Below, piece after piece: positions 2 through 43,882 of a stretch of DNA of 64,000 bases. Origin of the DNA: Shigella phage PSD9. The stretch's first letter is position 1, and each line of letters begins with the position of its first letter. The position numbers and the translations under genes are program-made. Where the stretch lies: the sequence record MZ561532. The stretch is one strand, 5' to 3'. The notes below the pieces were generated by a model that had not been told where the DNA came from, did not search any database, and worked only from the letters and a program-made list of their open reading frames with translations.

Positions 2-349
2 GCTGCTTTACACCTTTTAGAATTCAACGGACGATTAAAAGAAAAAGTAACTAAAGATGGATTCACATATAATTTAAATGACCTTTATATTTGCCAACGA
101 CTTGAATTCCAGTTCCAAGGTAAGACATTTAAATTTAAATCACACGAACCATTTCAAACATTTGGTCCTGTTGATAGTGTACTACAATCTCTTTATCTTG
201 GTGATGATGTACCAGATTTTCTGGATATGCCTGCCTTTGTTGCTACATGGGCCGACGATATAACTTCTACTGTAGCTATCCCTGGTCCTAATGGTCCTAT
301 CAAAGGATTGCTTAAAATCATGGATATCTTAAATGAAGAACGAATCTAA
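2..349 (+). CDS. baseplate hub protein, gp28-like, C-terminal part (5' end outside window)
   Basis: Frame open from window edge to TAA at 347-349; overlaps ATG of next gene; sits upstream of 29/48/54 as in T4. Identity by synteny only. Confidence 0.35.
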   Translation, partial: AALHLLEFNGRLKEKVTKDGFTYNLNDLYICQRLEFQFQGKTFKFKSHEPFQTFGPVDSVLQSLYLGDDVPDFLDMPAFVATWADDITSTVAIPGPNGPIKGLLKIMDILNEERI

Positions 350-2069
350 TCAGAATAGTTTTCGTCGCAATAAACTGATTGAAGAAATGGCTCCTCAGCG
401 TCGTGCTGAGGCGCTAGCCCAAACTCAGAACGACGAATTAGGAAATATATCAGATGTTTTATCCGATTCCCAGGCGGCGTCTGAATTGCTCTCTGAAGTT
501 GTTGAGACAAAGACTAACCAGATTATTAATTCTGTAGACCGAGTAGACAAAAGCGTCCAAGATGTTGTCGCTGGAACAGAATTAACGGCCGAAGCCATAT
601 CAGAACAAACCCAACAGTCTAAAGCTCTTTCGGATGCATTAAACGAAAAGATTAATAAGCTTTCTAATATGTTGGAGGCTAAATTTTCTGGTATTTCTAT
701 TCCACCGGAAGGGAGCTCATTAAAGGTTATTGAAGACTCTATTCCAGAAGAACCTAAGGCCGAAACTCCTAAAGTTCCTGCTGTTGTTGAAGATATTCTT
801 CCACCTGAAGATAATAAACCTGACGCCGAATTTATGCCTGAGCCTCCTAAAAATTCAGATGAAGGTAAAGAAGGTGATAAGACTTCTCTTTCCGAGAAAA
901 TCGAAGCCCTTACTAAAATAACTGAAAAGGGATTTAAAGCTTCTATAGGCGTCGCTGATAGAATTTCAGGCATGCTTTTTAAGTATACCATTACCGCTGC
1001 CGCTGAAGCTGCTAAACTCGCAGCAGGTTTAGTCCTTTTAATATTTGGTATAGATGCCATTCGCGTATACTTCCAATATTTCATGGACCAATTTGAGTCA
1101 GGGTGGAAAGAATTTAACGATAAGTTTAAAGAGTGGGGACCATTACTTGAAGGGCTAATGACATGGGCCAAGAATGCTGAAGCCATGTTTAGTGAAGGAA
1201 ACTGGTTAGGTCTGGCTGAAGCTATTATTCGTGGTATGGTTAATCTTACCAAAAATATGGCACAACTTTTAATGCTTGGTATTTCTAAGTTGATTTCTGC
1301 TATTTTAAGTAAAATACCTGGTATGGGTGATTTAGCTGAAAACGTAGAGGCTTCTGCTTTAATGTCATATCAGCAAAATACTGGAGCCACTTTGGACGAT
1401 GAAGACCAAACTAAAGTGGCCAAGTACCATGATAGACGTTCAGCCGAGGCTTTAGAAACAGCCGAGAAAATGAATAAGAAGTATAAGGATAAACCTGAGC
1501 TTATAAACCAGGCAGAGAAATACGGTAATCTTACTAAAGAACAAGCCGACCAATTACGCGCAGGTGGAATTGACACAAGCTTCCGTGACCTCCCTGAAGA
1601 AGAACGTTTAGAGTATTTCAAGAAACGTGATAAAGCTCAGGCTGATATTATTCGTTTGACACAAACCGCTGATAATATAATGAAGCCAGATTCTAAAGAT
1701 ATCGAAAATGCTAAAGCATTTAAAGCTGATATCGAGAAACAATTGGCCGACCCTATTATGGCTAAAGGTGGGGCACCGAAAGACCTTAATATCCAGCAAT
1801 TACTTGATAAGATGAATAAATCTTTAGAGAAATTTAATGAAGCTGAAAAGCCTAAACCTGCTTCTGTAGCGGAATCTCCTGAAAATACCCAGGTTAAAAA
1901 GGTTGATGAGCAAATGAGAGCAAAGGAAAATGCTAAATATAGTCAGCAAGCTCCAACTCAAATAAATCAGCAAACGAATATCAAGAAAACGAGTAAGACA
2001 AGCTATAATATGCCTCCACAGTCCTCTACTCCTGCTCCTGGTATGCGTCAAGCTACTAAAGTTAATTAG
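333..2069 (+). CDS. 29: baseplate hub / tail-length determinator gp29-like
   Basis: 578 aa (T4 gp29 about 590 aa); coiled-coil-rich with central hydrophobic segment; followed by 48- and 54-sized ORFs. Confidence 0.55.
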   Translation: MKNESNQNSFRRNKLIEEMAPQRRAEALAQTQNDELGNISDVLSDSQAASELLSEVVETKTNQIINSVDRVDKSVQDVVAGTELTAEAISEQTQQSKALSDALNEKINKLSNMLEAKFSGISIPPEGSSLKVIEDSIPEEPKAETPKVPAVVEDILPPEDNKPDAEFMPEPPKNSDEGKEGDKTSLSEKIEALTKITEKGFKASIGVADRISGMLFKYTITAAAEAAKLAAGLVLLIFGIDAIRVYFQYFMDQFESGWKEFNDKFKEWGPLLEGLMTWAKNAEAMFSEGNWLGLAEAIIRGMVNLTKNMAQLLMLGISKLISAILSKIPGMGDLAENVEASALMSYQQNTGATLDDEDQTKVAKYHDRRSAEALETAEKMNKKYKDKPELINQAEKYGNLTKEQADQLRAGGIDTSFRDLPEEERLEYFKKRDKAQADIIRLTQTADNIMKPDSKDIENAKAFKADIEKQLADPIMAKGGAPKDLNIQQLLDKMNKSLEKFNEAEKPKPASVAESPENTQVKKVDEQMRAKENAKYSQQAPTQINQQTNIKKTSKTSYNMPPQSSTPAPGMRQATKVN

Positions 2070-2077
2070 GATTAATA

Positions 2078-3166
2078 ATGAAAGTAAAAGAACTTGACTT
2101 TGATGTAGCCTCCTTGTTTAAAGGAGGTTCAAAGACCTCCGCAGGTCAATCTAAAACACCACCAATAAAAACCACGGTAACCGCTCAGTATCCAGCTGAG
2201 CGGGCTTCAGGTAATGATACCTCAACCGATATGGTATTAAACGACCTCTATAAAAATGGATTGCTTTTTACCGCATATAATTTTAGTTCTCGTGTATCTC
2301 CGGATTTGCGTAACGACCGTTCGAGTCAAATGACTAAAAAGTTCTCAAGTGCAGCCAGCAAATTAACAGGCAATAGTGGAACATATAGTGCTGTTAAAAA
2401 CTTATTTGGTGGAAATACTAAGGGCGTTAAATTTGATACCCAAGCCTTAGCTAATATCCTTTTACCTCGTTCTAAATCTGATGTGGATTCCGTATCACAC
2501 AAATTTAATGATGTTGGTGAGTCCTTAATTACTAAAGGCGGTGGTACTGCTACAGGTATTTTAAGTAACGTTGCTAGTACCGCGGTATTTGGTGCATTAG
2601 AATCTGTGACTAACGGCGTAATGGCTGATTCAGGCGAACAGATATACACTACAGCTCGTAGTATGTACGCCGGTCCGGATAACCGTACTAAGGTATTCAC
2701 TTGGGAAATGACTCCACGAAATGCCCAAGACCTTATCCAGATTATTAAAATATACGAAATCTTCAACTATTATTCTTACGGCGAAACGGGTAATTCGGCT
2801 TTCGCAGGTGAATTAAAAGAGAAGATTGATACTTGGTATCGTTCTACATTTAAAAAAGAAGCTATTGACAAGTTTGATGGTAAGCTATTAGGGGAAAGTA
2901 TTACAAGCTTCCTTTCTAATGTTATTGTGGTAAGTAACCCAACCATTTGGTATATCCGAAACTTTGGTGATAGCAGTTCATATGATGGTCGTGAAGATAT
3001 TTTTGGCCCATGCCAAATCCAGAGTATCCGTTTTGATAAAACTCCGGACGGCCATTTTAACGGATTGGCTATTGCTCCTAACTTACCATCTACGTTTAGT
3101 TTAGAAGTTACTTTCCGTGAAATTATTACTCTGAACCGTGGCTCACTTTATACGGAAGGATTCTAA
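2078..3166 (+). CDS. 48: baseplate tail-tube cap gp48-like
   Basis: 362 aa (T4 gp48 about 364 aa); synteny 29-48-54. Confidence 0.55.
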   Translation: MKVKELDFDVASLFKGGSKTSAGQSKTPPIKTTVTAQYPAERASGNDTSTDMVLNDLYKNGLLFTAYNFSSRVSPDLRNDRSSQMTKKFSSAASKLTGNSGTYSAVKNLFGGNTKGVKFDTQALANILLPRSKSDVDSVSHKFNDVGESLITKGGGTATGILSNVASTAVFGALESVTNGVMADSGEQIYTTARSMYAGPDNRTKVFTWEMTPRNAQDLIQIIKIYEIFNYYSYGETGNSAFAGELKEKIDTWYRSTFKKEAIDKFDGKLLGESITSFLSNVIVVSNPTIWYIRNFGDSSSYDGREDIFGPCQIQSIRFDKTPDGHFNGLAIAPNLPSTFSLEVTFREIITLNRGSLYTEGF

Positions 3167-4095
3167 TGTATACTTTACAAGAATTTCAGAATCAGGCAAT
3201 TAATATTGACCTACAAAGGAATAACCTGTTTAGTGTGGTATTTGCCACAGTTCCTTCTTCTAAATCTCAGACGCTCCTCGACCAGTTCGGTGGAGCTTTA
3301 TTTAACAATATCCCATTGAATAGCGATTTGTTTGGTATTACACAAGGAGAGTTGACCCAAGGTGTTACGACATTAGTGACAGCGGGCACTCAGAAGTTGA
3401 TTCGTAAGTCAGGCATAAGTAAATATTTGATTGGAGCTATGTCATCCAGGGTTGTGCAGAGCTTACTAGGAGAGTTTGAAGTAGGTACATATCTGATGGA
3501 TTTTTTCAATATGGCCTATCCTACGGCAGGTCTTTTAGTCCACGCCGTTAAAATCCCGGATAATACTTTGAACTATGAAATGGATTTGAACCACAACTCA
3601 CCTAACATCAAAATTACCGGAAGAGAATATTCTCCATTAGTATTAAGCTTCCGTATGGATTCTGAAGCTGCTAACTACCGTGCTTTTAATGATTGGGTCA
3701 ATAGTGTTCAAGACCCTATTACACAATTAAGAGCATTACCGGAGGATGTTGAAGCTGACATTCAAGTCAACCTTCATTCCCGTAATGGATTACCACATAC
3801 GGTAGTAATGCTTAATGGTTGCGTTCCAATGAGCGTATCTTCCCCGGAATTATCTTACGACGGTGATAACCAAATTGCTTCATTTGATGTTACATTTGCT
3901 TATAGAAGTGTACAGACTGGTGCAGTTGGCAAACAAGCTGCTTATGAATGGTTGGAAGATAAAGTCCTTAAAGGCGTGGCGGGTATAAGTGAGAGCAATT
4001 CCCTGAGTTCTTCAGTAGCTAAATTAAGCCGACTTTCAGGAGCTTCTAGTGGATTAACAGGATTGGTTAATAGTGGAATATCGAGGTTGTTATAA
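3166..4095 (+). CDS. 54: baseplate tail-tube initiator gp54-like
   Basis: 309 aa (T4 gp54 about 320 aa); ATG overlaps stop of previous gene; terminator hairpin follows. Confidence 0.55.
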   Translation: MYTLQEFQNQAINIDLQRNNLFSVVFATVPSSKSQTLLDQFGGALFNNIPLNSDLFGITQGELTQGVTTLVTAGTQKLIRKSGISKYLIGAMSSRVVQSLLGEFEVGTYLMDFFNMAYPTAGLLVHAVKIPDNTLNYEMDLNHNSPNIKITGREYSPLVLSFRMDSEAANYRAFNDWVNSVQDPITQLRALPEDVEADIQVNLHSRNGLPHTVVMLNGCVPMSVSSPELSYDGDNQIASFDVTFAYRSVQTGAVGKQAAYEWLEDKVLKGVAGISESNSLSSSVAKLSRLSGASSGLTGLVNSGISRLL

Positions 4096-4102
4096 CAAAA
4101 AA

Positions 4103-4120
4103 GGAGAGCATATGCTCTCC
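4103..4120. terminator. bidirectional intrinsic terminator (perfect 18-bp palindrome)
   Basis: GGAGAGCATATGCTCTCC flanked by A6 upstream and T-rich downstream; lies between convergent gene 54 (+) and the 4130-4420 ORF (-). Confidence 0.6.
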
Positions 4121-4129
4121 TTTAGGGGT

Positions 4130-10626: not shown

Positions 10627-10642
10627 AAGGCCCGAAGGCCTT
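10627..10642 (-). terminator. intrinsic terminator (GGCC-UUCG-GGCC + U-tract)
   Basis: Minus-strand RNA forms AAGGCC-UUCG-GGCCUU followed by UUUUCUGG; overlaps stop of the 10641-10823 ORF. Confidence 0.5.
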
Positions 10643-13938: not shown

Positions 13939-14133
13939 TTATCCTCGCTTTAAACATTTGATTACAGACAGTTCACCGCCCATGCGAACGTCTTCAGTTC
14001 CATCGACCCATAGGACGGTGTAGGCTTCTTTAATAGTAACATTACCTAATTTAAAAGCAGGTAGAACCTTTGAAATCATTCCAGGAATACCTACGCCTTT
14101 TAACTGGACTGTTTGCGATAAAAATAGTTGCAT
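13939..14133 (-). CDS. hypothetical protein
   Basis: 64-aa ORF, tightly packed with neighbours. Confidence 0.4.
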   Translation of the reverse strand: MQLFLSQTVQLKGVGIPGMISKVLPAFKLGNVTIKEAYTVLWVDGTEDVRMGGELSVIKCLKRG

Positions 14134-14420
14134 TAGAACCTCATCTGAAAGCCGTGTGATTTAACATTACCACCATAGATGTCAGAGGTATTGACTTCAC
14201 GGGCGGCACTAGGGTCGATATTGATATCACGGTTGAGCTTAGTGATTGCTAAGGTATCACGACCATTAACAGTACGGAATTCTACAGGGCATACAACATC
14301 AGCATAGGCCTTAATAGATTCACGAGTAGGTTGTTTGTTGGCAGGAACGTCTTTACCTGCTTTAGAGAAAACAACTTCACAGAAATTTTTACGAGTATCG
14401 AAATAAGTGGTCATAAACAT
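14133..14420 (-). CDS. hypothetical protein
   Basis: Start set at internal ATG (MFMTTYF...) with GAGGAA SD; the track's first 11 codons are the intergenic hairpin. Confidence 0.4.
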   Translation of the reverse strand: MFMTTYFDTRKNFCEVVFSKAGKDVPANKQPTRESIKAYADVVCPVEFRTVNGRDTLAITKLNRDINIDPSAAREVNTSDIYGGNVKSHGFQMRF

Positions 14421-14435
14421 AATATTTTCCTCAAA

Positions 14436-14451
14436 GGAGGCCGAAGCCTCC
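14436..14451 (-). other. intercistronic RNA hairpin GGAGGC-UUCG-GCCUCC
   Basis: Perfect 6-bp stem with UUCG tetraloop immediately 5' of the SD; identical 16-nt sequence recurs at 51870-51885. Confidence 0.5.
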
Positions 14452-14461
14452 ATTTTTAAGA

Positions 14462-14827
14462 TTAGATATCGAATTCGTTCAGAACTACATCAAAGATTGC
14501 TTCCAGGTGTTCAGGTTTAGCTCGGTTGCTCAGGATGTGACGAATCCAGGTTTTAACCAGAAGCTTACGATTAACGCCGTTCCAGCAAGGATGAGTACCT
14601 AAATCACGTTGACGGAAATCATCATCTAAAGCTATTTTAAAAGAAGAACCTTCTTTAGTGATTGAAAGAGTGATACCATTTTCAAATCGCATATAAACAT
14701 AATCAGGAGAAACCCAATGGTCGATTTCGCAAACTGAACCGTTTTTATGCTCCCATAAACACATGTATTCGTTAGAACCAACCGCACCGATAGAAACATA
14801 TTTACGTTCGAAGTTGATGTAGTTCAT
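14462..14827 (-). CDS. hypothetical protein
   Basis: Start set at internal ATG (MNYINFE...) with AAGGA SD, downstream of promoter at 14877-14905. Confidence 0.4.
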   Translation of the reverse strand: MNYINFERKYVSIGAVGSNEYMCLWEHKNGSVCEIDHWVSPDYVYMRFENGITLSITKEGSSFKIALDDDFRQRDLGTHPCWNGVNRKLLVKTWIRHILSNRAKPEHLEAIFDVVLNEFDI

Positions 14828-15348: not shown

Positions 15349-15377
15349 CATTTTTTTAAAGATTTAGAAACAAAAAT

Positions 15378-15395
15378 GGGACTCCGAAGAGTCCC
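15378..15395 (-). terminator. intrinsic terminator (GGGACUC-UUCG-GAGUCCC + U-tract)
   Basis: 7-bp stem, UUCG loop, followed by AUUUUUGUUU on minus RNA; 6 nt after stop of the 53-aa ORF. Confidence 0.55.
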
Positions 15396-15400
15396 ATAAC

Positions 15401-18466: not shown

Positions 18467-18487
18467 TTCGATTTCCTCATTTGTTTC

Positions 18488-18515
18488 GGTAGGACTACTA
18501 TACCACAGTCCTACC
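18488..18515 (-). other. 9-bp inverted repeat (GGTAGGACT/AGTCCTACC) enclosing the -10 element
   Basis: Perfect 9-bp arms with 10-nt loop between stop of upstream ORF and SD of next gene. Confidence 0.5.
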
Positions 18516-18526
18516 ATAGTGTAAAC
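18497..18526 (-). promoter_or_regulatory. T4-type early promoter (GTTTAC-N18-TATAGT)
   Basis: -35 GTTTAC and -10 TATAGT; embedded in the inverted repeat. Confidence 0.4.
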
Positions 18527-20903: not shown

Positions 20904-20937
20904 AATAATTTCCTCGATTTTTATAATCCGTAGGAGC

Positions 20938-20967
20938 ATTATACTCTGCTCCCATGAGTTTGTAAAC
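20938..20967 (-). promoter_or_regulatory. T4-type early promoter (GTTTAC-N18-TATAAT)
   Basis: Consensus -10 TATAAT flanked by inverted repeat GGAGCA/TGCTCC; -35 GTTTAC. Confidence 0.45.
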
Positions 20968-22258: not shown

Positions 22259-23406
22259 TACTCTACCACAATTTCTTTCAAATATTTTTCAGGGATTTGG
22301 GCCTTATGATTTTTCAAGAACACAGAGTTAATCTGGTCCATGACCGTATCATAATTAATACCGCCTACGTACGCCTGCATAAGAATAGAGAACAACCCTG
22401 GGAAGTCCTTAAGGATTAGCTGTCCAGTAACGGCATAGTCTTTACGGTCGCGACCTTTGAGTTGAGAGTAAGCTGCTTCTAACAAGGCTAATGATTGTTC
22501 TAGGTAATCTAAATGGATGCGTTCAAAGGCATCGATTTTCTCGATAGCAAAGGAATCTGTACTGAACAGACCACGAAGGTCATCAGTTCCACCAGCCACT
22601 ACAACTTCAAACAAACGTTCGTTGTTGTTAATGGAATCTTTGGTATGATGCAGTGCACTGTACCAGGCGGTTTTGAGTTTAAAGAACGTACCATCTTTCA
22701 GTACAAAGATGAAACCTTCAATGCCTTCTTGCTTACGGATGTTTTCTACGAAATCGCCCTCAGCGAGCTCATAGCTTTCAACCAAATGCTTACGCAGTGC
22801 GCCGTCCTTAAACAATTCCGCATACGGAATATATTCACCCGTTTCATTATTACGAACGTTCAACAGGATGAGGTTCGTTTCTTGGTAAGCCAGCACAATA
22901 CGGTTAGTAGGTGCAACATATTCAAGGTTGCAGGTATACCCGGCTTTGGTGATTTCTTCTAGACGTGCGGCAAAAGCCTCGTTCTCAGGTAGACGAAGGA
23001 AACGTAAAGAATCATGCACCATTGATGAATGGATAGAGCCTTTAGATTTAACAGAAAGATATTGTCGGTCCATGAATGTAGAAATCAGAGAACCGTCTTC
23101 CTTAGCCATTACGAGGTCAATATTTTCCGGCGACAAATCCAGACCGATGGTCATAGGGTTTTCGTCGAGGTTAAAGAACTTTTGCATAGGACGAGCAGCA
23201 ATACGTACTGGACCTTTCTCGTCCATTTCAAACATAATGCCTCGGCACTCTAGTGCGCCGTCTTCCAACCAATCACTGTATGATGCGTAGTTATAACTAA
23301 AGATGCGATAGTTGACTCCTAGAGCACTCTGAAAGTCTTTAAAGAAGAACTTAGATTTAGTCGAGTTTTTAACCAGGGCCATCAAGTTATCATATAATTC
23401 AATCAT
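22258..23406 (-). CDS. rnlA: RNA ligase 1
   Basis: Strong resemblance to T4 Rnl1 including the adenylation lysine in KEDGSL and RIFSYNYASYSDW; 382 aa. Confidence 0.85.
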   Translation of the reverse strand: MIELYDNLMALVKNSTKSKFFFKDFQSALGVNYRIFSYNYASYSDWLEDGALECRGIMFEMDEKGPVRIAARPMQKFFNLDENPMTIGLDLSPENIDLVMAKEDGSLISTFMDRQYLSVKSKGSIHSSMVHDSLRFLRLPENEAFAARLEEITKAGYTCNLEYVAPTNRIVLAYQETNLILLNVRNNETGEYIPYAELFKDGALRKHLVESYELAEGDFVENIRKQEGIEGFIFVLKDGTFFKLKTAWYSALHHTKDSINNNERLFEVVVAGGTDDLRGLFSTDSFAIEKIDAFERIHLDYLEQSLALLEAAYSQLKGRDRKDYAVTGQLILKDFPGLFSILMQAYVGGINYDTVMDQINSVFLKNHKAQIPEKYLKEIVVE

Positions 23407-23816
23407 TGCTTTATCCTATGTTGGGTATTCCAAGGTGGATTAAATTTCTTTATGAACATTGGCTCTTCAAGAGACATGGTCTCAACTGACATAGTTCCAA
23501 GTTCGTTAGTCATCGACAGATTAAAGCACTGCCGTGCATAGAACTCTACCTTTTTACCTGCCATTAATGCTTCATGAATCAGAATGGACTTGGTCGAATC
23601 TGACGTTTGGTCCTTACGATTAATAGCGGTTCGGTAGTAGTTGATGCGCTTACGAAGATTTTTAGTCTTCCCGATGTAGACTAGTATATCATCAACCGCT
23701 ATAGCATATATGACATTTTGTTTATTTGGTACTGTGAGTGGAGCAATGCTGGCGTCATCTTGGAGTTCTAGGGTGACGTACTTGATAAAGCTAAATTCGT
23801 CTGCGATTTCTTTCAT
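23403..23816 (-). CDS. denA: endonuclease II (GIY-YIG family)
   Basis: Start set at MKEIADEFSFIKY matching T4 DenA; GIY-YIG-like VYIGKT...RINYY; track N-terminal extension is the intergenic hairpin. Confidence 0.8.
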   Translation of the reverse strand: MKEIADEFSFIKYVTLELQDDASIAPLTVPNKQNVIYAIAVDDILVYIGKTKNLRKRINYYRTAINRKDQTSDSTKSILIHEALMAGKKVEFYARQCFNLSMTNELGTMSVETMSLEEPMFIKKFNPPWNTQHRIKQ

Positions 23817-23824
23817 AGCAATAA

Positions 23825-23838
23825 GGGGCCGAAGCCCC
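23825..23838 (-). terminator. intercistronic hairpin GGGGC-UUCG-GCCCC
   Basis: Between nrdB stop and denA start; short U-rich tail (UUAUU). Confidence 0.4.
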
Positions 23839-23843
23839 ATTCC

Positions 23844-25022
23844 TTAAAAATATTTCTTGTACGATGCCATTACTTTTTCATCGACATCGTTATCAATTTG
23901 TGCTACAAGGTAAGAACTGATTTCCACTTCCTGAGGAGCAGCCTGTACAGCATCAGAGTTCAGGTATTCGCGAATCCAAGGATAAGGATGGCGGGCAGGA
24001 GCATCGGTAATAGGACACGGTAAGCCACATTGCTTCATACGAGAAACTGTCAGGTAATCGACAAAAGCACCCATGTTCTGAGTATTTAATCCAGGGCAAG
24101 TACCATCTTTGAACAGGTGAGCTGCCCATTCTTTTTCTTGACGGTTAACTTCCATGAAAATATCAACTGCTTCTTGTTCACACTCTTGAGCAATTTTAAC
24201 CCATTCATCACCATCAGTACCAAGTTGAAGTTGACGAATAATGTACTGGGTACCCTTAAGGTGAAGCTGTTCATCACGTGCAATGAACTTCATAATCTTA
24301 GCATTACCTTCCATGATTTCCATGTTTTTATGGAAGTTAAAGGTGCATGCGAAAGATACATAAAAACGAATAGCTTCCAATGCGTTGATTACATGAAGGC
24401 AAAGGTAAAGGGATTTCATTAGCTCACGCTTCCAATACATCTCATGCTCAATAGCATCTTCAATATCGTCTTCGTCTGCATTAATTTCTTTTTGGTATTC
24501 GATATCAGCTTTAGCATTCTGCCAATAGCGAGTTTTCTCAATAACGTCGTCGTAATAACGACCAATAGATTCAGCACGTTTCATAATAGCGTCATCTAAC
24601 AGAATTTCATCAAATACCTTTGACGGGTCTGTATAGAGGTTACGCATGATATGGGTATATGAACGAGAGTGAATAGTCTCACTAAAGGTCCATGTAGCCA
24701 CCCATGTATCAAGGCTAGGGTCTGAAATCAAGGCTTGAAGTGCAGCAGAAGGAGCACGTCCTTGGATACTATCCAGAAGTGATTGATACTTCAGATTATT
24801 GGTAAAAATATTTTGCTGGAATTGTGGAAGCTTATTAAACTGGGCAGCATCCATCATCAAGTTAACTTCCTCTGGACGCCAGAAAAAACTCAACTGCTTC
24901 TCACAAAGCTCTTCGAATACTTTATGGCGTTGGATATCATAACGAGCAATACCCAATCCTGAACCAAAGAACATCGGTTCGACTAAAACATCAACTGGGG
25001 TGGTATTAAAAACTGTAGACAT
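23844..25022 (-). CDS. nrdB: ribonucleotide reductase small subunit
   Basis: Near-identical to T4 NrdB; start set at MSTVFNT; uninterrupted reading frame, so no intron. Confidence 0.9.
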   Translation of the reverse strand: MSTVFNTTPVDVLVEPMFFGSGLGIARYDIQRHKVFEELCEKQLSFFWRPEEVNLMMDAAQFNKLPQFQQNIFTNNLKYQSLLDSIQGRAPSAALQALISDPSLDTWVATWTFSETIHSRSYTHIMRNLYTDPSKVFDEILLDDAIMKRAESIGRYYDDVIEKTRYWQNAKADIEYQKEINADEDDIEDAIEHEMYWKRELMKSLYLCLHVINALEAIRFYVSFACTFNFHKNMEIMEGNAKIMKFIARDEQLHLKGTQYIIRQLQLGTDGDEWVKIAQECEQEAVDIFMEVNRQEKEWAAHLFKDGTCPGLNTQNMGAFVDYLTVSRMKQCGLPCPITDAPARHPYPWIREYLNSDAVQAAPQEVEISSYLVAQIDNDVDEKVMASYKKYF

Positions 25023-27331: not shown

Positions 27332-27349
27332 AATTTCCTCAATATGTTA

Positions 27350-27377
27350 GGTTCTATAATTATTCTATCATAGAACC
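27350..27377 (-). other. hairpin (8-bp stem GGUUCUAU/AUAGAACC) just 5' of the nrdA SD
   Basis: Inverted repeat with 12-nt loop, a few nt upstream of the nrdA ribosome-binding site. Confidence 0.4.
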
Positions 27378-27397
27378 TGTTAAGCATGGACTGATAT

Positions 27398-29441: not shown

Positions 29442-29466
29442 TTTATTCTCCTTAGTTGATAAGGCT

Positions 29467-29496
29467 ATAGTATCACTACCATAGCCTGGTGTAAAC
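29467..29496 (-). promoter_or_regulatory. T4-type early promoter (GTTTAC-N18-TACTAT)
   Basis: Conserved cassette; inverted repeat GGCTAT/ATAGCC brackets the -10. Confidence 0.45.
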
Positions 29497-30514: not shown

Positions 30515-30534
30515 GGGAAGACCGAAGTCTTCCC
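30515..30534 (-). terminator. intrinsic terminator downstream of gene 32
   Basis: GGGAAGAC-UUCG-GUCUUCCC followed by UUUUUGG on minus RNA. Confidence 0.6.
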
Positions 30535-33814: not shown

Positions 33815-36800
33815 ATGGCCGATATTTTAAAACCTGCCTTCCGTGCTACATCCGGACTCGATGCTGCAGGCGAGAAAGTTATCAATGTTGCCAAAGCCGA
33901 TTACAATGTATTAGACGACGGCGTCAACGTTGAATTCTTTATAGATGAGAACACCATCCAGGCGTACGACGAGACGCGCGGATATAAGAAAGGGTTTGCC
34001 GTAATCCATGACCAACGTATCTGGGTTGCTCAACGTGATATCGATGCTCCAGCAGGAACCTTTGTACCGGGTTATTGGACTGCAACTCGTACTGACCCTA
34101 AATGGATTACCGTAGCATCTCCTACACGCCAGCTGGCTTCCGGTGAATATATTGCTGTGGATTCTGCTGCTAGCTTTACTACATTTACCCTGCCTCCGAA
34201 CCCTACTGATGGTGATACCATCGTAATCAAGGATATTGGTGGCCGTGTAGGTTATAATGAAATTAAGCTCCAGTCTAGTTCTGCTCCAGGTGGTGGTAAT
34301 CAGAAAATTGTCCGTTTCGGTAACCAGTTCACTGAGACCTTAATTACGAAGCCTTTTTCCTATAATATGATTATCTTTGCCAACCGTTTATGGCATTTCT
34401 GGGAAGCAGCTAATGAAGAACGTGGTATTCGTGTAGAACCGAACACTGCCCAGTTCCAATCACAAGCGGGTGATAACGTTTTACGTCGTTATACTTCAGG
34501 TGCAGTAATTAAGTTTACTCTTCCTAAGTATGCGAACCAAGGTGATATTATTAAAACCGTTGATATCGATGGTTTAGGAAGTAAATTCCACTTAATCGTT
34601 GAAACATTTGATGCGTCATCTTCATTAGGTAAGCCTGGCCAGCATAGCATGGAATTCCGTACTTCAGGTGATGGATTCTTTGTTTATAACTCTACCGAAA
34701 AATTATGGTATGTTTGGGACGGCGACCGACAAACTCGTTTACGTGTAATTCGTGACGATGTTGAACTCTTGGCTAACGAAAGTGTTATTGTTTTTGGTCC
34801 TAATAACACGACACCCCAGACAATTAATATCACATTACCTACCGGTGTGGCCCAGGGTGATGTCGTTAAGATTGCTCTGAACTATCTCCGTAAAGCTCAG
34901 ACGGTAAATATTAAGGCTGCCGTAGGAGATAAGATTGCTTCATCCGTCCAGTTGCTTCAATTCCCTAAACGTTCAGAATATCCACCAGAAACCGAATGGG
35001 TATTGAATGACGTACTGACCTTTAATGGCAATATAAGTTATACTCCGGTTATTGAACTGAGTTATATCGAAGACACCACTACAGGTGGCAAATATTGGGT
35101 TGTTGCTCAGAACGTTCCTACTATAGAACGTGTGGATTCTAAAGATGATTTAACTCGTGCTCGTCTCGGTGTTATTGCCCTTGCGTCGCAGACTCAGGCA
35201 AACGTTGACCATGAAAATAACCCTGAGAAAGAACTTGCAATTACTCCACAGACTTTAGCTAATCGTGTAGCGACTGAATCTCGTCGTGGTATTGCTCGTA
35301 TTGCTACTACTGCTCAGGTGAACCAGGACACAACCTTCGCATTCCAGGACGATTTGATTATTTCTCCTAAGAAATTAAACGAACGTACTGCAACCGAAAC
35401 TCGCCGTGGTGTTGCTGAAATTGCTACGCAAGTTGAAACTAACACGGGTACAGATGATACTACAATCATCACTCCTAAGAAGCTACAAGCGCGCCAGGGT
35501 TCGGAAAGTCTTTCAGGTATTGTAACATATACCTCTACTGTAGGAACCGCTCCTGCGACTGCTAGGGACACCGTAGGTACTAACGTTTATAATAAGAACG
35601 TAGGCAATTTGGTTATTTCTCCTAAAGCTCTTGACCAGTATAAAGCTACCCAAGTTCAACAGGGTACGGTATATCTTTCTAACCAATCTGAAGTTAACGC
35701 AGGCCAATCGGCAAGTGGATTTGCCAACAGTGCTGTTTCTCCGGAAACATTACATGCTCGTGTGGCTCTTGATACTCGTACAGGGTTAATTGAAATTGCT
35801 ACGCAACAGGAAACTGATACTGGAACAGATTATACTCGTGCGGTAACACCTAAGACGTTAAATGATAGGAAAGCTACGGAAGGATTGACTGGTATTGCTA
35901 GAATTGCAACACAGGTAGAATTTGATGCAGGTACGTTAGATAATGTTATTTCAACTCCGTTGAAAATTAAAACAAGATTTAATGATACTGCTAGAACTTC
36001 TGTCTCAGCAGCCAGTGGTTTGGTTGAATCAGGAACCTTATGGAACCATTATACACTAGATATTAGAGAAGCAAATGAGACACAACGTGGTACTGCTCGC
36101 CTGGCAACCCAGACCGAAGTCAACGTTGGTACTGATGACAAAACCATCATCACTCCTTTGAAATTACACTCTAAAAAATCTACTGAAAGTTCTGAAGGTA
36201 TTATTCGTGTTGCAACCAATACCGAAACAACCGCAGGAACTTCTAAAGTTTTGGCTGTAAGCCCTTCTGGTTTAAAATATGTAGTACAGACCGAAACTAC
36301 TTGGGAAGCTACTGCACTTCGTCGTGGATTTGTTAAACTAACCGAAGGTGCTTTAACCCATTCAGGAAATAAAGTTACTGGTTCTGGTGTTAAATTTAAC
36401 TCAGGTACAGGCCTTTACGAGAACGATGATACTGTTCTGAATGCAGCGAACTATCCTAAAACAGGTTATGCTGTTTCATCTTACGAGATGAATAAAACTT
36501 TACAGAACTTTTTACCTATAAATGCTACGGCTGTGAACTCCGAGAAATTGGATGGCCTAGATTCACTTCAGTTCATTCGTAGAGACGTTGACCAAACGGT
36601 TAATGGTTCTTTAACGTTGACAAAACAATTGAACCTGGCAGCTCCTCTAGTGTCTTCTAGTACTGCTAATATTACCGGCAATACTATTTTAGGTTCTCTG
36701 GAAGTAACCGGAAATTCTACTTTTAAAAATGATGTATCTGTTAGCTCAGGTAAATCTATTAAATTTGTAGGCCCTCAGTCAGGCGCTGGTACTTGGAACT

Positions 36801-37864
36801 CTCAAGGTGATACTTTAGCTCCGATTTTTGCCGAGATAAATTCGACCCCAGATGCCAAGTTCCATCCTATTGTTAAACAACGTTTAGGGCAAGGTACGTT
36901 CTCTTTAGGCACTGTAAATGATGGAACTCGTGATTTTAAAATACATTATCTTCCATCGCCGGGTTCTTTAGAATCTTTCTACTGGACCTTTAATACGACT
37001 GGTGACTTTGCTGTTAATAGTGGTTCCATTAGTATTTCTAAGAATGCTAATATCACAGGTATAACCACTTCTAACGGTGTTTCTACAACTACATTAAATG
37101 CTTCTGCTCTGTCTTCATTACAAAACGTAACTACTTCAGGTACTATCGTTTCCACCGGACAGGTATCGGCAAATAATGGTTTGGTTGCTCAAAAATACGT
37201 CCGCTCTGTTGGTGTTAAACCTACATTAGCATCGCAGGCCCCTACTGCAGAAACAGTTGGCTTCTGGTCTGTCGATATCAATGATTCGGCTACATTTAAC
37301 CTATTCCCAGGTTATTGGACGATGAAAACTAAACGTCAGGTTAATATTGATACGGTCCAAACTAAACCTGCCGGTGTTTCTGATGAGATATGGAATGCTT
37401 CTGGTTGGTTGACGGAAACGGGTGCATTTAGTTCTCCGGCTATTCGTTATCGTAACGAAGACGGTAGTTTTGGTGACGAAGTTCTCAGTACGACGGGTCA
37501 GAAATTACGTGGTACTTGGTTTGATTATTCTGTTCGTGATAAGGAAGTTAAATATCCTGGTACGTTAACTCAGTTTGGTAATACATTGGATTCATGTTAT
37601 CAGGATTGGGTGTGCTATCCTACAGGACTGAATGGTGGTACTATTCGTTATACACGTACCTGGCAGAAAAATAAAAACGCATGGACTACGTTCTCTATGG
37701 TCTATACGGCAGATAACCCTCCTTCTGCGGAAGAGGTTGGTGCATTGCCTGCTGATAACGCCACAATGGGTAACATTACAATCCTTGATTGGTTACGTAT
37801 TGGTAACGTTCGTATTATTCCTGACCCGGTCACTAAATCCGTTAAGTTTGAGTGGATTGAATAA
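33815..37864 (+). CDS. 34: long tail fibre proximal subunit
   Basis: 1349 aa; extensive similarity to T4 gp34 including TETRRGVAEIATQ repeats and C-terminal ...NVRIIPDPVTKSVKFEWIE. Confidence 0.85.
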   Translation: MADILKPAFRATSGLDAAGEKVINVAKADYNVLDDGVNVEFFIDENTIQAYDETRGYKKGFAVIHDQRIWVAQRDIDAPAGTFVPGYWTATRTDPKWITVASPTRQLASGEYIAVDSAASFTTFTLPPNPTDGDTIVIKDIGGRVGYNEIKLQSSSAPGGGNQKIVRFGNQFTETLITKPFSYNMIIFANRLWHFWEAANEERGIRVEPNTAQFQSQAGDNVLRRYTSGAVIKFTLPKYANQGDIIKTVDIDGLGSKFHLIVETFDASSSLGKPGQHSMEFRTSGDGFFVYNSTEKLWYVWDGDRQTRLRVIRDDVELLANESVIVFGPNNTTPQTINITLPTGVAQGDVVKIALNYLRKAQTVNIKAAVGDKIASSVQLLQFPKRSEYPPETEWVLNDVLTFNGNISYTPVIELSYIEDTTTGGKYWVVAQNVPTIERVDSKDDLTRARLGVIALASQTQANVDHENNPEKELAITPQTLANRVATESRRGIARIATTAQVNQDTTFAFQDDLIISPKKLNERTATETRRGVAEIATQVETNTGTDDTTIITPKKLQARQGSESLSGIVTYTSTVGTAPATARDTVGTNVYNKNVGNLVISPKALDQYKATQVQQGTVYLSNQSEVNAGQSASGFANSAVSPETLHARVALDTRTGLIEIATQQETDTGTDYTRAVTPKTLNDRKATEGLTGIARIATQVEFDAGTLDNVISTPLKIKTRFNDTARTSVSAASGLVESGTLWNHYTLDIREANETQRGTARLATQTEVNVGTDDKTIITPLKLHSKKSTESSEGIIRVATNTETTAGTSKVLAVSPSGLKYVVQTETTWEATALRRGFVKLTEGALTHSGNKVTGSGVKFNSGTGLYENDDTVLNAANYPKTGYAVSSYEMNKTLQNFLPINATAVNSEKLDGLDSLQFIRRDVDQTVNGSLTLTKQLNLAAPLVSSSTANITGNTILGSLEVTGNSTFKNDVSVSSGKSIKFVGPQSGAGTWNSQGDTLAPIFAEINSTPDAKFHPIVKQRLGQGTFSLGTVNDGTRDFKIHYLPSPGSLESFYWTFNTTGDFAVNSGSISISKNANITGITTSNGVSTTTLNASALSSLQNVTTSGTIVSTGQVSANNGLVAQKYVRSVGVKPTLASQAPTAETVGFWSVDINDSATFNLFPGYWTMKTKRQVNIDTVQTKPAGVSDEIWNASGWLTETGAFSSPAIRYRNEDGSFGDEVLSTTGQKLRGTWFDYSVRDKEVKYPGTLTQFGNTLDSCYQDWVCYPTGLNGGTIRYTRTWQKNKNAWTTFSMVYTADNPPSAEEVGALPADNATMGNITILDWLRIGNVRIIPDPVTKSVKFEWIE

Positions 37865-37872
37865 GAGGTATT

Positions 37873-38994
37873 ATGGAAAGATTTATGGCAGAATTTGGAC
37901 AAGGATATGTCCAGGTTCCTACATTATCTGAAAACAATGCTGTAAGGTATAAACTTAGTATAGCGGGTAGTTGTACTAAGTCTACCACAAAAGCATATGT
38001 TAAATTTCAAGATGGGAACTTCGGTTCCCAGAATTTTCAAAATGGATTAAACCTTATAGAAATTGATGTTAGTGCTGAACCTAAAATAGTGGCTAACAAA
38101 ACTTATAGTTTTACAAAAGATTTTGATGTTATTTCTGAAGCTTTTATAACGTATATAAATTCTATACCGGCCAATAGAATAGTTTGTTTAGTATCTTCTG
38201 GTAGATTAAATGCTTCACAAAAACTTATTGATTGGTTCCGTGCAGCAGGAAGTACCGCATTCCCGACTAAATGGTTAATAGACCGGTTTGAGCCATCTTA
38301 TTCTGCATTTTATGTTTCAGGAAGGAATGCCATAGTAATGGAACATGTGCTTTATAATGATGGGGTATTGGTCGAAGATGTTTCTACCCCATTAGAAGTG
38401 GTATTTGATGATATCAGCGACGTTGGTGGTACAGGATATCCTGTCAGAATTGTTGAAGACGAAAGCACTTATCTAAGCAATGATGGAGATGAAATTAAGC
38501 GATTTCCTACCGAATCTCCTACCACCCCATTAACAGATTATAATATGAAACCAGGTGAATTCTTTTACCTTAAGTTTCAATTAATGCGCGACCAAGCTTT
38601 AAAAGACGTAGGGACTTCTCAGATGTCTGTTAGATTTTTTAATGCCTCAGGTGCTTTAACTGGGACAGTTAATATGGACGTTCCTTCCAACGTTCCTGCT
38701 GGCGCATGGATGACATTTGAACGGGTAGTAATGGTTCCTGAAGGTACTACAGACTTTACTCTTTATGCCAGAAAAACAGCTTCGGCTGGCCAAGGCGGAG
38801 TTCGAAATGTTATGTTCGGTGAGATATCTGAATCAGAACCTCAGCCAAAACCTGCTGAATTTGGTGTTAACGGTATTCGTATGAACTTTGGTACGGAAAC
38901 TAAAAATATGGGTACTACCATAGCCCAGCTATATGATAAAACAGGCACTAAACCTGGTCAGGTTTGGGTCGCTGAATTTAGAGAAAAATATTAA
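37873..38994 (+). CDS. 35: long tail fibre hinge protein
   Basis: 373 aa (T4 gp35 372 aa), between 34 and 36. Confidence 0.75.
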   Translation: MERFMAEFGQGYVQVPTLSENNAVRYKLSIAGSCTKSTTKAYVKFQDGNFGSQNFQNGLNLIEIDVSAEPKIVANKTYSFTKDFDVISEAFITYINSIPANRIVCLVSSGRLNASQKLIDWFRAAGSTAFPTKWLIDRFEPSYSAFYVSGRNAIVMEHVLYNDGVLVEDVSTPLEVVFDDISDVGGTGYPVRIVEDESTYLSNDGDEIKRFPTESPTTPLTDYNMKPGEFFYLKFQLMRDQALKDVGTSQMSVRFFNASGALTGTVNMDVPSNVPAGAWMTFERVVMVPEGTTDFTLYARKTASAGQGGVRNVMFGEISESEPQPKPAEFGVNGIRMNFGTETKNMGTTIAQLYDKTGTKPGQVWVAEFREKY

Positions 38995-39010
38995 GGAACC
39001 TTCGGGTTCC
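38995..39010 (+). terminator. intrinsic terminator after gene 35
   Basis: GGAACC-UUCG-GGUUCC followed by UUUUUCGUUUUC. Confidence 0.6.
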
Positions 39011-39028
39011 TTTTTCGTTTTCTACGGC

Positions 39029-39036
39029 CATAAATA
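39029..39036 (+). promoter_or_regulatory. candidate late promoter (CATAAATA) for genes 36-38
   Basis: CATAAATATATAAAA 34 nt upstream of gene 36 ATG; one mismatch to TATAAATA. Confidence 0.35.
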
Positions 39037-39069
39037 TATAAAAGGCTATAACTCCCAAAGGAAACTCAA

Positions 39070-39717
39070 ATGGCAGATTTAAAATTAGGTTCTACAGCAG
39101 GAGGTTCAGTATTATGGCACCAAGGTAATTTTCCCTTAACGCCTGTATCAAATGACCTTCTTTACAAAACATATAAAGTTTATACCGAATATAATAAACC
39201 GCAAGCCACTGATAACGACTTTGTTTCAAAAGCAAATGGTGGTAATTATAAGAATAACGTGTATTTTGAAAAAGGGCTGACCTTTAATGATACTAATGGA
39301 TACGGTATTAAATTAGGAACAAGAACTGGTGGAGCACCGTTCACGGCTTCTTTCCGTATTAAAGGCGCTTTTGGATATGAAACGGAAGATGGTACTCCGT
39401 TCATGATATTCAACCCAAGTACAGTAGTAGGTGCTAAACGCCTCACAGTAATGGGTGATTCATTATTCAGACAAGTATATGACGAATCAGGTCGTGTATT
39501 CAGTCCAGGCAACACCCCTACTAAAGCTCAAGTAGGATTATCGTTAGTAGATAACGCAAAACAGGTCCAAATAAATAATACTAACATGCAAACAATGACC
39601 GGAGTACTTGCTGCTCCTAACTTTATTTCGCTGAATCCGGCCTCTGACGCAGGACACGTTCCTCGTTTTGACCAGATTGTTATTAAAGATTCTATTCAAG
39701 ATTTTGGTTATTATTAA
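39070..39717 (+). CDS. 36: long tail fibre distal connector
   Basis: 215 aa (T4 gp36 about 221 aa), directly upstream of 37. Confidence 0.75.
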   Translation: MADLKLGSTAGGSVLWHQGNFPLTPVSNDLLYKTYKVYTEYNKPQATDNDFVSKANGGNYKNNVYFEKGLTFNDTNGYGIKLGTRTGGAPFTASFRIKGAFGYETEDGTPFMIFNPSTVVGAKRLTVMGDSLFRQVYDESGRVFSPGNTPTKAQVGLSLVDNAKQVQINNTNMQTMTGVLAAPNFISLNPASDAGHVPRFDQIVIKDSIQDFGYY

Positions 39718-39725
39718 GAGGCATT

Positions 39726-42700
39726 ATGGCTACTTTAAAGCAAATCCAATTTAAAAGAAGTAAAGTAGCCGGTGTACGTCCGACACCGGCCCAGTTGGCT
39801 GAAGGTGAACTGGCTATTAACTTAAAGGACCGATTACTTTTTACTAAAGACGATACTGGAGCGATTATCGACCTTGGCTTTGCTAAAGGTGGTAATATTG
39901 ACGGTAATGTTATTCATAACGGTAACTACAACCAGACTGGCGATTACACCCTAAATGGTACCTTTACCCAAACAGGTGATTTTAATTTAACCGGTATTGC
40001 TCGTGTAACTCGTGACATTATTGCCGCTGGCCAGATAATGACCGAAGGTGGCGAGCTTATTTCTAAGAGTGCATCGACGTCCCATTTGAGATTTTTTGAC
40101 GGCGCATCCCGCGAACGTGGCATTATCTTTTCGCCAAATAATGCTGGAGCGACCACTCAGGTAGTTAATATTCGCGTACAAGATTATGCGACAAGTGGCG
40201 AAAGCACTTATGCATTTTCAGGCAATGGACAATTTACTTCACCTGAAGTATCAGCATTGAAATCTATTTCGTCTCCACAAATTCTGACCGATAAAGTTAT
40301 TACAAACGGGAAGAAGACAGGCGATTATGATATCTATTCATTGGCAAATAATAATTCTAACACAGATAAAAATAATTTACGCGTTGTGCGTACTGATCCA
40401 GCGGCCGCAATGCTCCATGAAATTTGTGAAAATAACGGTATCAGTTGGTATTCCGGTTCAACCCCTACTGATTATATGATATCTTTTGCTTATTCCGGTG
40501 GTTTTCAAGCTGGACATTCGATTGCAGTAGGTATGGAATCAGGGCCTATGACCTATTCAACCTTAGGTAAAGGTTCTATTGTTTTAGGTGATAATGACAC
40601 TGGGCTAAAATGGCATCAGGATGGATATTATTTCAGCGTTAATAACGGCACAAGAACTTTCCTGTACGGCCCTGCAGAAACCACCAGTCTTAGAAAAATG
40701 GTTATGGGTTATTCTGTAAACGGTACCGATTTAACTACTCCTCCAACTGAAAACTATGCTTTGGCTACTGTTGTTACTTACCATGATAATAACGCATTTG
40801 GTGATGGTCAAACTCTTTTAGGTTATTACCAAGGTGGCAATTATCACCACTATTTCCGCGGTAAAGGTACTACAAACGTTAACACCGCTGGTGGTTTGTT
40901 AGTTACTCCTGGTAATATTGATGTTGTTGGTGGTTCTGTTAATATCGATGGTCGTAATAATGCTTCTACGCTGATGTTTAGAGGTAACACGACCGGAAGT
41001 AGTTCAGTTGATAATATGACTATCGCCGTTTGGGGTAATACCTTTACTAATGTTGATGGCGACCGTAAAAACGTAATGGAAATATCTGATGCCACTAGCT
41101 GGATTCAATATTATCAACGACTGTCTTCAGGTGCTATTCAAAGCCATTTAAATGGAACTTTGGGTGTAAACGAAAGTATAAATGTCGGCCAGGAAGTTAA
41201 CGTCTCCGGCACTATTGCTGGTAATGCGGTCAATGCTCTTAGAATTTGGAACGACGATTACGCCGCTATTTTCCGCCGTTCAGAAAACAGTCTTCATATT
41301 ATTCCTACCGCCTTTGGCGAAGGTAAAACTGGTGATATTGGTCCACTTCGCCCGTTTCGTATGGACCTTGATACAGGTAAAGTAAGTATTCCTAATATGG
41401 ATACTACTAATTTGACTATGAACCCAAATGGCTATATTAAATTTGCTGGTCATGGCTCAGGCGCTGGTGGTTATGATATTCAGTATGCACAAGCAGCTCC
41501 TGTTTTCCAGGAAATCGATGATGATGCTGTAAGTAAATATTATCCTATTGTTAAACAGAAGTTTTTAAACAGTAAAGCTGTTTGGTCTTTAGGTACTGAA
41601 ATTAATTCCGGGGATTTTGTTTTACACCATATGAAAGAAGATGGAACACAATCTCATCTCTCAAGATTTAATGCTGACGGTACAGTTAACTTCCCGGATA
41701 GCGTTAAAGTCGGTGGCGATAAAGCTACTATCGGCAAAGATGGTAACATCTGGTCTGATATCTGGAAAACGTTTACTTCTGCCGGTGACGTAACCAATCT
41801 TCTTGGTGCTGTCTATAGCCGGGTTTCTAAAGAAGGCGATACGTTGACAGGCCGCTTAACTCTTAAAACCAACTCAGACGCCGTTGTTATTGATTATCCA
41901 GCAGATGAAGCAGGTTATGTTAAGGGTAAAAAAGGTGGTGTTAATAACTGGTATGTTGGTAATGGCGGTGCTGATAATAACTTATCGTTTTATAGTTTCC
42001 AAACTAATTCAGGCGTTAATATTCATAATAGTGGAGAAATTGGTTTAGCTCCTCAAGGGTCGGATACTTTTTATTTTAATAGGGACCGACTTTATATAAA
42101 GGGTGCACAATGGACAGCTCATCAATCTGGTGCATGGGGTGACCAATGGGGTTTAGAAGCGCCTGTATTTGTGGATTTTGGCAATGTCAGTAATGACTGT
42201 TATTATCCAATTATCAAAGGAAGATCTGGTATTACTAACGAAGGATACATATCGGGTGTAGATTTTGGTATGCGACGCATTACTAATACCTGGGCACAAG
42301 GTATTATTCGTGTAGGTAACCAGGAAAATGGTCAAGACCCACAAGCTATATATGAATTCCACCATAATGGGGTTTTTTATGCTCCAAGCTTACTTAAGAG
42401 CGGCAGAGTATCGGCCGGTGGTGGTGACCCGGCATGGACTGGGCCATGTATTGTTATTGGTGATAATGATACTGGTTTAGTCCATGGCGGTGATGGTCGT
42501 ATTAACATGGTTGCCAATGGTGTGCATATTGCATCTTGGTCTGACTCTTACCATATCCATGAAGGTCTTTGGGATACCAATGGTGCTTTGTGGACTGAAC
42601 ACGGAAGAGCTATTATTTCTTTTGGCCATTTAGTCCAACAAAACGATAGCTATTCAACATTTGTTCGTGACGTTTATGTTCGTTCTGATATTCGTGTTAA

Positions 42701-43019: not shown

Positions 43020-43024
43020 TAAGA

Positions 43025-43038
43025 GGGGCTTCGGCCCC
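43025..43038 (+). other. intercistronic hairpin GGGGC-UUCG-GCCCC between genes 37 and 38
   Basis: No U-tract; followed directly by GGAGG SD of gene 38. Confidence 0.45.
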
Positions 43039-43050
43039 TTGGAGGTTTAT

Positions 43051-43845: not shown

Positions 43846-43856
43846 TGCATAAGCTC

Positions 43857-43864: not shown

Positions 43865-43882
43865 TCTTTAAAGGAGAAAAGT

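Follow-up and report, generated by a model that had tools for sequence, protein, structure and literature searches.

CUUCGG hairpins are described as extraordinarily stable and as frequent in the intercistronic regions of bacteriophage T4 in later accounts of the work of Tuerk et al. (1988 PNAS 85:1364, as reported in PMC4371310 and PMC8948821), the second of which adds, citing the same study, that they are common in phage intergenic regions, especially those of T4, and that their functions vary. PeSL cassettes are repeated intergenic stem-loops of T4-like early regions whose copies at distant loci can be near-identical (PMC2839356, PMC4122927) and which include a sigma-70-type early promoter (Arbiol et al. 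2010; Comeau et al. 2014). The split-SD hairpins of T4 genes 38 and 25, the only two genes named for this mechanism in the reviews consulted, are small stable hairpins of the translation initiation region that lie between the SD and the AUG (PMC3014915). The intrinsic terminators of T-even phages may also take the form of a GC-rich UUCG stem-loop just after a stop codon. REP elements, such as that between malE and malF, are stable, non-terminating intercistronic hairpins for which a block to 3'-5' exonucleases and unequal operon expression have been proposed; they are imperfect palindromes of greater length and constitute a bacterial repeat family.

The window analysed here, a stretch of 64,000 nucleotides from Shigella phage PSD9 (sequence record MZ561532), is judged from its sequence to be that of a T-even phage of the genus Dhakavirus, close to Bp7 and PSD2002. 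In sequence comparisons, the surroundings of the first site described below (site 1) are 99% identical to PSD2002 and those of the second (site 2) are 99% identical to Bp7 and IME540. Gene names were transferred from annotated relatives, and the genes lie on the minus strand except in two late-gene blocks (78-4095 and 33815-44536). Exactly two copies of GGAGGCTTCGGCCTCC are present, at 14436-14451 and 51870-51885 of the minus (sense) strand, in agreement with an earlier note that had reported one perfect 16-nt hairpin at these two positions; no match was found in 100 dinucleotide-preserving shuffles, even with two mismatches permitted. Because the flanking genes are on the minus strand, the RNA reads GGAGGC-UUCG-GCCUCC, i.e. 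a UUCG tetraloop with a C-G closing pair on six perfect Watson-Crick pairs. The predicted free energy of this hairpin is -10.8 kcal/mol, and the folding check suggested in the earlier note gave a predicted probability of formation above 0.99 for both copies in a 156-nt context. The two junctions are laid out as follows.

Positions 14462 to 14464, minus strand: stop codon of gene 30.7, followed by a 10-nt spacer and then the site 1 hairpin.
Positions 14436 to 14451, minus strand: site 1 hairpin, GGAGGC-UUCG-GCCUCC, at the 30.7/30.6 junction (exact match, folding, orthologous hairpins).
Positions 14418 to 14432, minus strand: translation start of gene 30.6, with the SD GAGGAA at 14432-14427 and the AUG at 14420-14418.
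Positions 51895 to 51897, minus strand: stop codon of rIIB, followed by a 9-nt spacer and then the site 2 hairpin.
Positions 51870 to 51885, minus strand: site 2 hairpin, same sequence as site 1, at the rIIB/denB.1 junction (exact match, folding, orthologues).
Positions 51855 to 51865, minus strand: translation start of denB.1, with the SD GAGGAA at 51865-51860 and the AUG at 51857-51855.

The hairpin is separated from the GAGGAA SD by UUU at site 1 and by UAAU at site 2, and both SDs stand at the normal 4-8 nt from the AUG. A U-tract is absent 3' of the stem at both sites, where the tails read UUUG and UAAU, respectively. These layouts confirm the claim that both hairpins lie between a stop codon and a GAGGAA SD and are not followed by a U-tract. 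An Rfam scan of the entire window at the gathering threshold returned no matches.

As far as the cited accounts describe them, the T4 C(UUCG)G hairpins share with our sites the UUCG tetraloop, the C-G closing pair and the short GC stem, the strong over-representation of CUUCGG in T-even intergenic mRNA, and an intercistronic, sense-strand position in a T-even genome, which both sites have. The unusual thermodynamic stability of the T4 class, which shows as a stop of reverse transcriptase, is a predicted property at sites 1 and 2. T4 itself has hairpins at both junctions, 30.7/30.6 and rIIB/denB.1, in slightly degenerate form: the former has a UUCA loop, and the latter has a bulged stem and overlaps the rIIB stop. 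The stem GGAGGC is specific to Dhakavirus, but nothing essential differs, and the finding is a rediscovery of a feature known from T4 since 1988, to which the earlier note had not linked it. We are confident that sites 1 and 2 are conserved, RNA-level intercistronic hairpins of the CUUCGG class. Unlike PeSL cassettes, sites 1 and 2 contain no early promoter; unlike the split-SD hairpins, they lie upstream of a normally spaced SD; and unlike the intrinsic terminators, they lack a U-tract, run straight into an SD and have no restart promoter. In contrast to the REP elements, the structure here is a minimal 16-nt tetraloop hairpin whose stabilising effect is only putative. A stem of 6 bp is also far too short for a target of RNase III.

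Scanning the window for UUCG-capped stems and for all stable hairpins places the two sites within a larger family. CTTCGG is the top over-represented hexamer in the 3.6 kb of sense intergenic sequence (13 copies observed vs 0.29 expected), where its reverse complement CCGAAG has no copies; in coding sequence the reverse complement is the commoner of the two (21 copies, against 12 of CTTCGG). All but one of the 13 intergenic copies cap stems of at least 5 bp, and the window holds 12 C(UUCG)G hairpins in sense intergenic sequence. Every one of the 12 presents its UUCG loop in the sense of the flanking genes, in minus- and plus-strand gene blocks alike, and since hairpin orientation tracks the local gene strand in both, the object under selection is the RNA. 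In seven members of the set the stem is preceded by A-rich sequence and trailed by a U-run, and these look like terminators; an early promoter, GTTTAC...GATACTATAG, lies no more than about 40 nt downstream of four of them (15376, 30515, 47283 and 55663). The other five (14436, 51870, 49093, 43023 on the plus strand, and 23825) have neither U-run nor promoter and adjoin a translation start. Besides sites 1 and 2, the hairpin scan gave the following members of the family, the first three of which have no U-run.

Positions 49093 to 49108, minus strand: GGCGUC-UUCG-GACGCU, downstream of ndd and before a 52.1-like gene, followed by AAU-GAGGAA-AAU-AUG.
Positions 43023 to 43040, plus strand: GAGGGGC-UUCG-GCCCCUU, between late genes 37 and 38, followed directly by the SD GGAGG and the AUG at 43051.
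Positions 23825 to 23838, minus strand: GGGGC-UUCG-GCCCC, between nrdB and denA.
Positions 10627 to 10642, minus strand: U-tract hairpin AAGGCC-UUCG-GGCCUU-UUCU, terminator-like.
Positions 15376 to 15397, minus strand: U-tract hairpin after gene 30.9, then an early promoter.
Positions 30515 to 30534, minus strand: U-tract hairpin after gene 32, then an early promoter.
Positions 38993 to 39012, plus strand: U-tract hairpin after gene 35.
Positions 47283 to 47302, minus strand: U-tract hairpin after gene 52, then an early promoter.
Positions 55663 to 55680, minus strand: U-tract hairpin, then an early promoter.
Positions 57763 to 57778, minus strand: U-tract hairpin with a stem overlapped by the stop codon of the gene upstream (57777-58037); the topoisomerase gene (55893-57710) lies downstream.

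The hairpin at 49093-49108 is the closest analogue of sites 1 and 2 and belongs to the same sub-class; it had been overlooked in the earlier note, which also omitted the seven U-tract hairpins. A 25-codon ORF (49093-49169, minus strand) begins at an AUG overlapping the ndd stop, crosses this hairpin and ends in a UAA directly after it; its Bp7 counterpart has one synonymous and one non-synonymous difference, and the ORF may be due to chance. The split-SD layout is found among the CUUCGG hairpins of the window only at the nrdB/denA junction (23814-23846, minus strand), where the SD AAGGAA (23845-23840) overlaps the nrdB stop and precedes the 14-nt hairpin, which is followed after 8 nt by the AUG (23816-23814). 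The same layout is seen in T4 (UGGGCC-GCAA-GGCCCA) and in Klebsiella phage JD18 (AGGGGC-UUCG-GCCCCU). In phage fPS-90, the junction orthologous to 15376-15397 is annotated with a terminator and an early promoter. The hairpins at 38993-39012 (plus strand) and 47283-47302 (minus strand) are identical 20-mers, AAGGAACC-UUCG-GGUUCCUU, each with a U-run; they stand on opposite DNA strands and are both in the sense orientation. A 7-bp CUUCGG hairpin, UGGGAAC-UUCG-GUUCCCA, also lies in the sense orientation within the coding sequence of gene 35 (38013-38030, plus strand).

Similar stems had been proposed at 23825, 43025, 18488 and 27350; the first two are true CUUCGG hairpins, whereas the last two have AU-rich stems of 12 bp topped by hexaloops and extend across the -10 region of a promoter. 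The palindrome at 18487-18516 covers the spacer and -10 of an early promoter, and that at 27349-27378 (minus strand, 12 bp) covers the -10 of a probable middle promoter with a MotA box, ATGCTTAA, just upstream. A late-promoter motif, TATAAATA, lies a few bases further upstream of this MotA box ahead of nrdA, such that a single 66-nt spacer accommodates a hairpin and promoters of three types. Five further promoter-embedded palindromes were found in the window. Inverted repeats of 8-12 bp at 18487-18516, 20931-20954, 29462-29487, 49659-49684, 58853-58879 and 59488-59511 (all on the minus strand; the shortest are those at 20931, 8 bp, and 59488, 9 bp) are each preceded by GTTTAC(A) and carry the -10 (TATAAT or GATACTAT) in the loop or 3' arm. 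These six are early promoters within palindromes, like the PeSL sub-type with a stem-loop over the -10; a hairpin in this position would require read-through RNA or single-stranded DNA in order to form. The elements of the window which fit the PeSL description are the promoter-followed hairpins at 15376, 30515, 47283 and 55663 and the -10-spanning palindromes at 18487, 29462, 49659, 58853 and 59488. A perfect palindrome at 4100-4123, AAAGGAGAGC-AUAU-GCUCUCCUUU, lies between the convergent genes gp54 (plus strand) and alt.-3 (minus strand), has U-runs on both strands and looks like a bidirectional terminator.

At the site 1 junction, the hairpins vary across T-even genera as follows.

Dhakavirus: GGAGGC-UUCG-GCCUCC.
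Gaprivervirus: GGGGC-GAAA-GCCCC.
Tequatrovirus: GGGGC-UUCG/UUUG-GCCCC.
T4: GGGGC-UUCA-GCCCC.
RB69: GGGAGC-UUCG-GCUUCC.

No hairpin is present at this junction in distant relatives whose genes abut. RNAalifold on a plain MAFFT alignment of site 1 predicts the hairpin with compensatory changes at three of its six pairs. The extracted stems have double changes at three of five pairs, with a score attained by 0-1 of 500 shuffles, and by 1 of 500 at site 1; their frames were picked with a hairpin finder, so that pairing percentages are partly circular and it is the variety of stems that carries information. At site 2, a stable hairpin is found no more than 70 nt after the rIIB stop in 32 of 36 T4-like contigs, regardless of the next gene, with stems that include GGGGC, AAGGGC, GGGGAC, AAGGGCC and GAGGAGCC and loops that are mostly UUCG and in some cases UCCG, UUUG or UCAG. 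The extracted stems were used here because the MAFFT alignment of the intergenic region misplaced gaps within the stem; RNAalifold on that alignment recovered only three invariant pairs. In the four contigs without the hairpin, the start of the next gene overlaps the rIIB stop, and three of them (IMG/VR contigs L213, L214 and L216) carry a denB.1-like gene whose AUG forms a UAAUG overlap, which is an alternative, directly coupled architecture of the rIIB/denB.1 pair. Among relatives, anything from 0 to 6 U follows the rIIB hairpin, and some orthologues are therefore probably real terminators. IMG/VR searches with gp30.6 and DenB.1 protein alignments both returned the same 14 genomes and added none. 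The covariance analysis called for in the earlier note thus finds hairpins kept at the same junctions across T-even genera with compensatory changes in their stems; these substitutions, together with loops kept in stable classes, indicate that selection acts on the RNA. The structural conservation whose lack would have counted against the earlier note is thus present.

In one Tequatrovirus-like genome (L008, IMGVR_UViG_2974742932, 380-620), genes 30.8 and 30.7 are missing, and the 30.9 terminator and early promoter now directly precede the 30.6 hairpin. The 5' arm of this hairpin is short of one G, which creates an A.C mismatch and suggests a deletion that ended at the stem. Two further structural ideas were considered and rejected. 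The 5' arm GGAGG and 3' arm CCUCC might act as SD decoy and anti-SD, but the stems of relatives at the same junctions (GGGGC, AAGGGC, GGGAGC) do not conserve an SD-like sequence. The minimum free energy structure of site 1 contains an extension helix that would sequester the SD; as a conserved element it was rejected by eye, the flanks of relatives being without that pairing.

We propose that hairpins of the sub-class without a U-tract to which sites 1 and 2 belong, and which is placed inside polycistronic early or middle transcripts a few nucleotides past a stop codon and 2-9 nt before the next SD, serve as structural punctuation in the message. The hairpin would fold as soon as it is transcribed, and RNA polymerase would mostly read through it. 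RNase E or G might then cut the AU-rich start region or the downstream cistron to leave the hairpin at a new 3' end, where it would block the host 3'-5' exonucleases PNPase, RNase II and RNase R, and the upstream cistron (30.7 or rIIB) would thereby outlive the downstream one. In T4, 3'-5' exonucleases enter at the new 3' ends that RNase E generates (PMC3014915). As a side effect, the GGAG in the 5' arm would be hidden from a T4-type RegB nuclease: the GGAG is base-paired in the stem and followed by GCUUCGG, whereas RegB requires a single-stranded GGAG in an A-rich context (GGAGRAYARAA), and GGAG motifs within UUCG stem-loops of T4 resist the enzyme (PMC1702504). The presence of the hairpins, their sense-strand bias, their covarying conservation and the absence of terminator and promoter features are observed; read-through and the exonuclease barrier are steps that we infer. 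A literature search found no T4 Term-seq data. We put the barrier role of sites 1 and 2 forward tentatively, rating it somewhat short of an even chance. The hairpin begins no more than about 10 nt from the stop codon, and overlaps it at T4 site 2, so that terminating ribosomes would melt it repeatedly; the L008 genome retains it in the 30.6 leader despite the loss of 30.7 and 30.8, which fits a role for the downstream gene better; and the variable U-run at rIIB, with its probable terminators among the orthologues, also speaks against a barrier.

An alternative is that sites 1 and 2 are weak intrinsic terminators or attenuators at which a fraction of RNA polymerases stops, such that the downstream cistron is transcribed less than the upstream one. 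Both hairpins share their design with the seven U-tract hairpins of the window, and site 1 is followed by UUU; RB69 and several T4-like phages have GGGGAC-UUCG-GUCCCC and then UUUUUU after rIIB, close relatives range from 3 to 6 U there as if on a tunable continuum, and the orthologous nrdB/denA hairpin is annotated as a terminator in fPS-90. However, intrinsic termination by the E. coli polymerase needs a run of U (PMC2988021), of which the tails at site 2 (UAAUGAGG) and site 1 (UUUG) both fall short. A simple terminator scanner calls neither site on the sense strand, and in fPS-90 the annotated terminators that flank these junctions follow 30.9 and denB.1, with none at 30.7/30.6 or rIIB/denB.1. 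No downstream promoter (GTTTAC/-10 pair) was seen around either site, so the downstream genes would depend on read-through. On sequence grounds, then, sites 1 and 2 do not fit the intrinsic-terminator pattern, which argues against efficient intrinsic termination, and we regard attenuation as unlikely. Terminators of antisense (plus-strand) transcription are a far more improbable proposal, indeed one to which we give hardly any weight: the sense sequence upstream of each hairpin is A-rich and the scanner does call both sites on the plus strand (GGAGGCCGAAGCCTCC, then ATTTTTAAGA or ATTATTGATT), but the stable UUCG loop is in the sense at 12 of 12 hairpins, the antisense loop CGAA is no special tetraloop, the A-richness is plain intergenic composition (34% A), and the antisense tail of site 2 is a poor U-tract. 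The hairpin could instead serve the downstream translation start, as 5'-proximal protection of the processed downstream mRNA from RNase E, as an insulator of the SD against long-range pairing or as a block to ribosomes sliding from the upstream cistron that uncouples the cistrons. Its end always lies 2-9 nt before the SD, and L008 keeps it with 30.6 after the 30.7/30.8 deletion, in the 5' leader just after the early promoter; T4 genes 38 and 25 have proven structure-assisted starts (PMC3014915), and the nrdB/denA hairpin has their split-SD layout, conserved in T4 and JD18. Against this, the rIIB hairpin is kept regardless of the next gene, and phages with a denB.1 start overlapping the rIIB stop lack it, which shows that it is dispensable for denB.1 expression; the hairpin-SD spacing is not fixed, and folding does not predict a consistently accessible SD, that of site 1 being partly paired in the predicted ensemble. 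We consider such a role about as doubtful as attenuation. The earlier suggestion of processing, stability or translational-coupling elements rather than terminators is upheld as regards RNA structures with a non-terminator pattern; coupling is the least favoured of its three options because each downstream gene has its own normally spaced SD and because relatives with genuine coupling of rIIB to denB.1 lack the hairpin.

The identity of the two copies might also be read as a product of DNA-level copying, in which the hairpins are short linker repeats that recombination, through PeSL-like shuffling or gene conversion, has copied or made uniform, any function being secondary. There are two identical pairs at distant loci, GGAGGC... 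(14436/51870) and AAGGAACC... (38993 plus strand/47283 minus strand), a Dhakavirus-specific A-U pair is present at both of our sites, the deletion in L008 ends right next to the hairpin's 5' arm, and recombination inside PeSL stem-loops is documented in RB49 and phi1 (PMC2839356). The shared stretch is, however, only about 20 nt long and contains no promoter, and the strict sense orientation of UUCG together with the compensatory changes points to selection on RNA. Chance identity among constrained stems is also plausible: the proper background is the 12 constrained CUUCGG hairpins, not random sequence, and against it two identical 6-bp stems are unremarkable. For CUUCGG hairpins of unrelated phages, the probability of a shared 6-bp stem was about 0.04 per pair in a small sample, so that one or two identical pairs are expected among the 66 pairs in the window. 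More than 120 unrelated viral contigs in IMG/VR, with GC contents of 30-69%, contain the 16-mer GGAGGCTTCGGCCTCC, followed by a U-tract in about half of them and by an SD in some; the 16-mer is thus a generic, convergent solution. In RB69 the stems differ between the two loci. Taken together, the convergence, the chance estimate and RB69 make gene conversion a possible but unneeded explanation of the identity, and we hold DNA-level copying to be quite improbable. Concerted evolution of stems across the genome was rejected, since the other hairpins of the window differ in stem and the RB69 loci differ from one another. The broader proposal, that the SD-abutting hairpins without a U-tract (14436, 51870, 49093 and 43023) form a functional class apart from terminators, held at fixed junctions in at least four T-even genera, setting the lifetimes or translation of neighbouring cistrons and with identical copies arising by gene conversion, also seems to us unlikely as a whole. 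Membership of the CUUCGG class combined with a barrier role is, as a compromise between our views of its two parts, evenly balanced as an account of the whole.

The hairpin also bears on where genes are thought to begin. The ORF at 14133-14453 starts at an AUG (14453-14451) whose G is the first base of the hairpin and which is not conserved among relatives. The start of 30.6 is annotated in this long form in the Bp7 RefSeq entry and in a short form, from the downstream AUG, in VR7 and T4; the remark that the hairpin falsely appears as N-terminal coding sequence in the ORF track was therefore correct. In the Bp7 RefSeq entry (NC_019500, 17705-18025 and 8831-9268), 30.6 and denA both begin at an AUG fused to the hairpin, with extensions of 11 and 8 codons, respectively, through the stem-loop; these correspond to 14133-14453 and 23403-23840 in the window. 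T4 and VR7 use the downstream, SD-bearing start in both genes.

The practical value of these observations lies in annotation, in that CUUCGG hairpins lead to wrong gene-start calls and non-terminating ones can be mistaken for terminators in prediction. The set of junctions offers clean targets for mutational tests, the same junction being available across genera with varying stems, U-runs and downstream genes. The comparative picture opens no new question, and bears on the role of the non-terminating intercistronic hairpins of T4.
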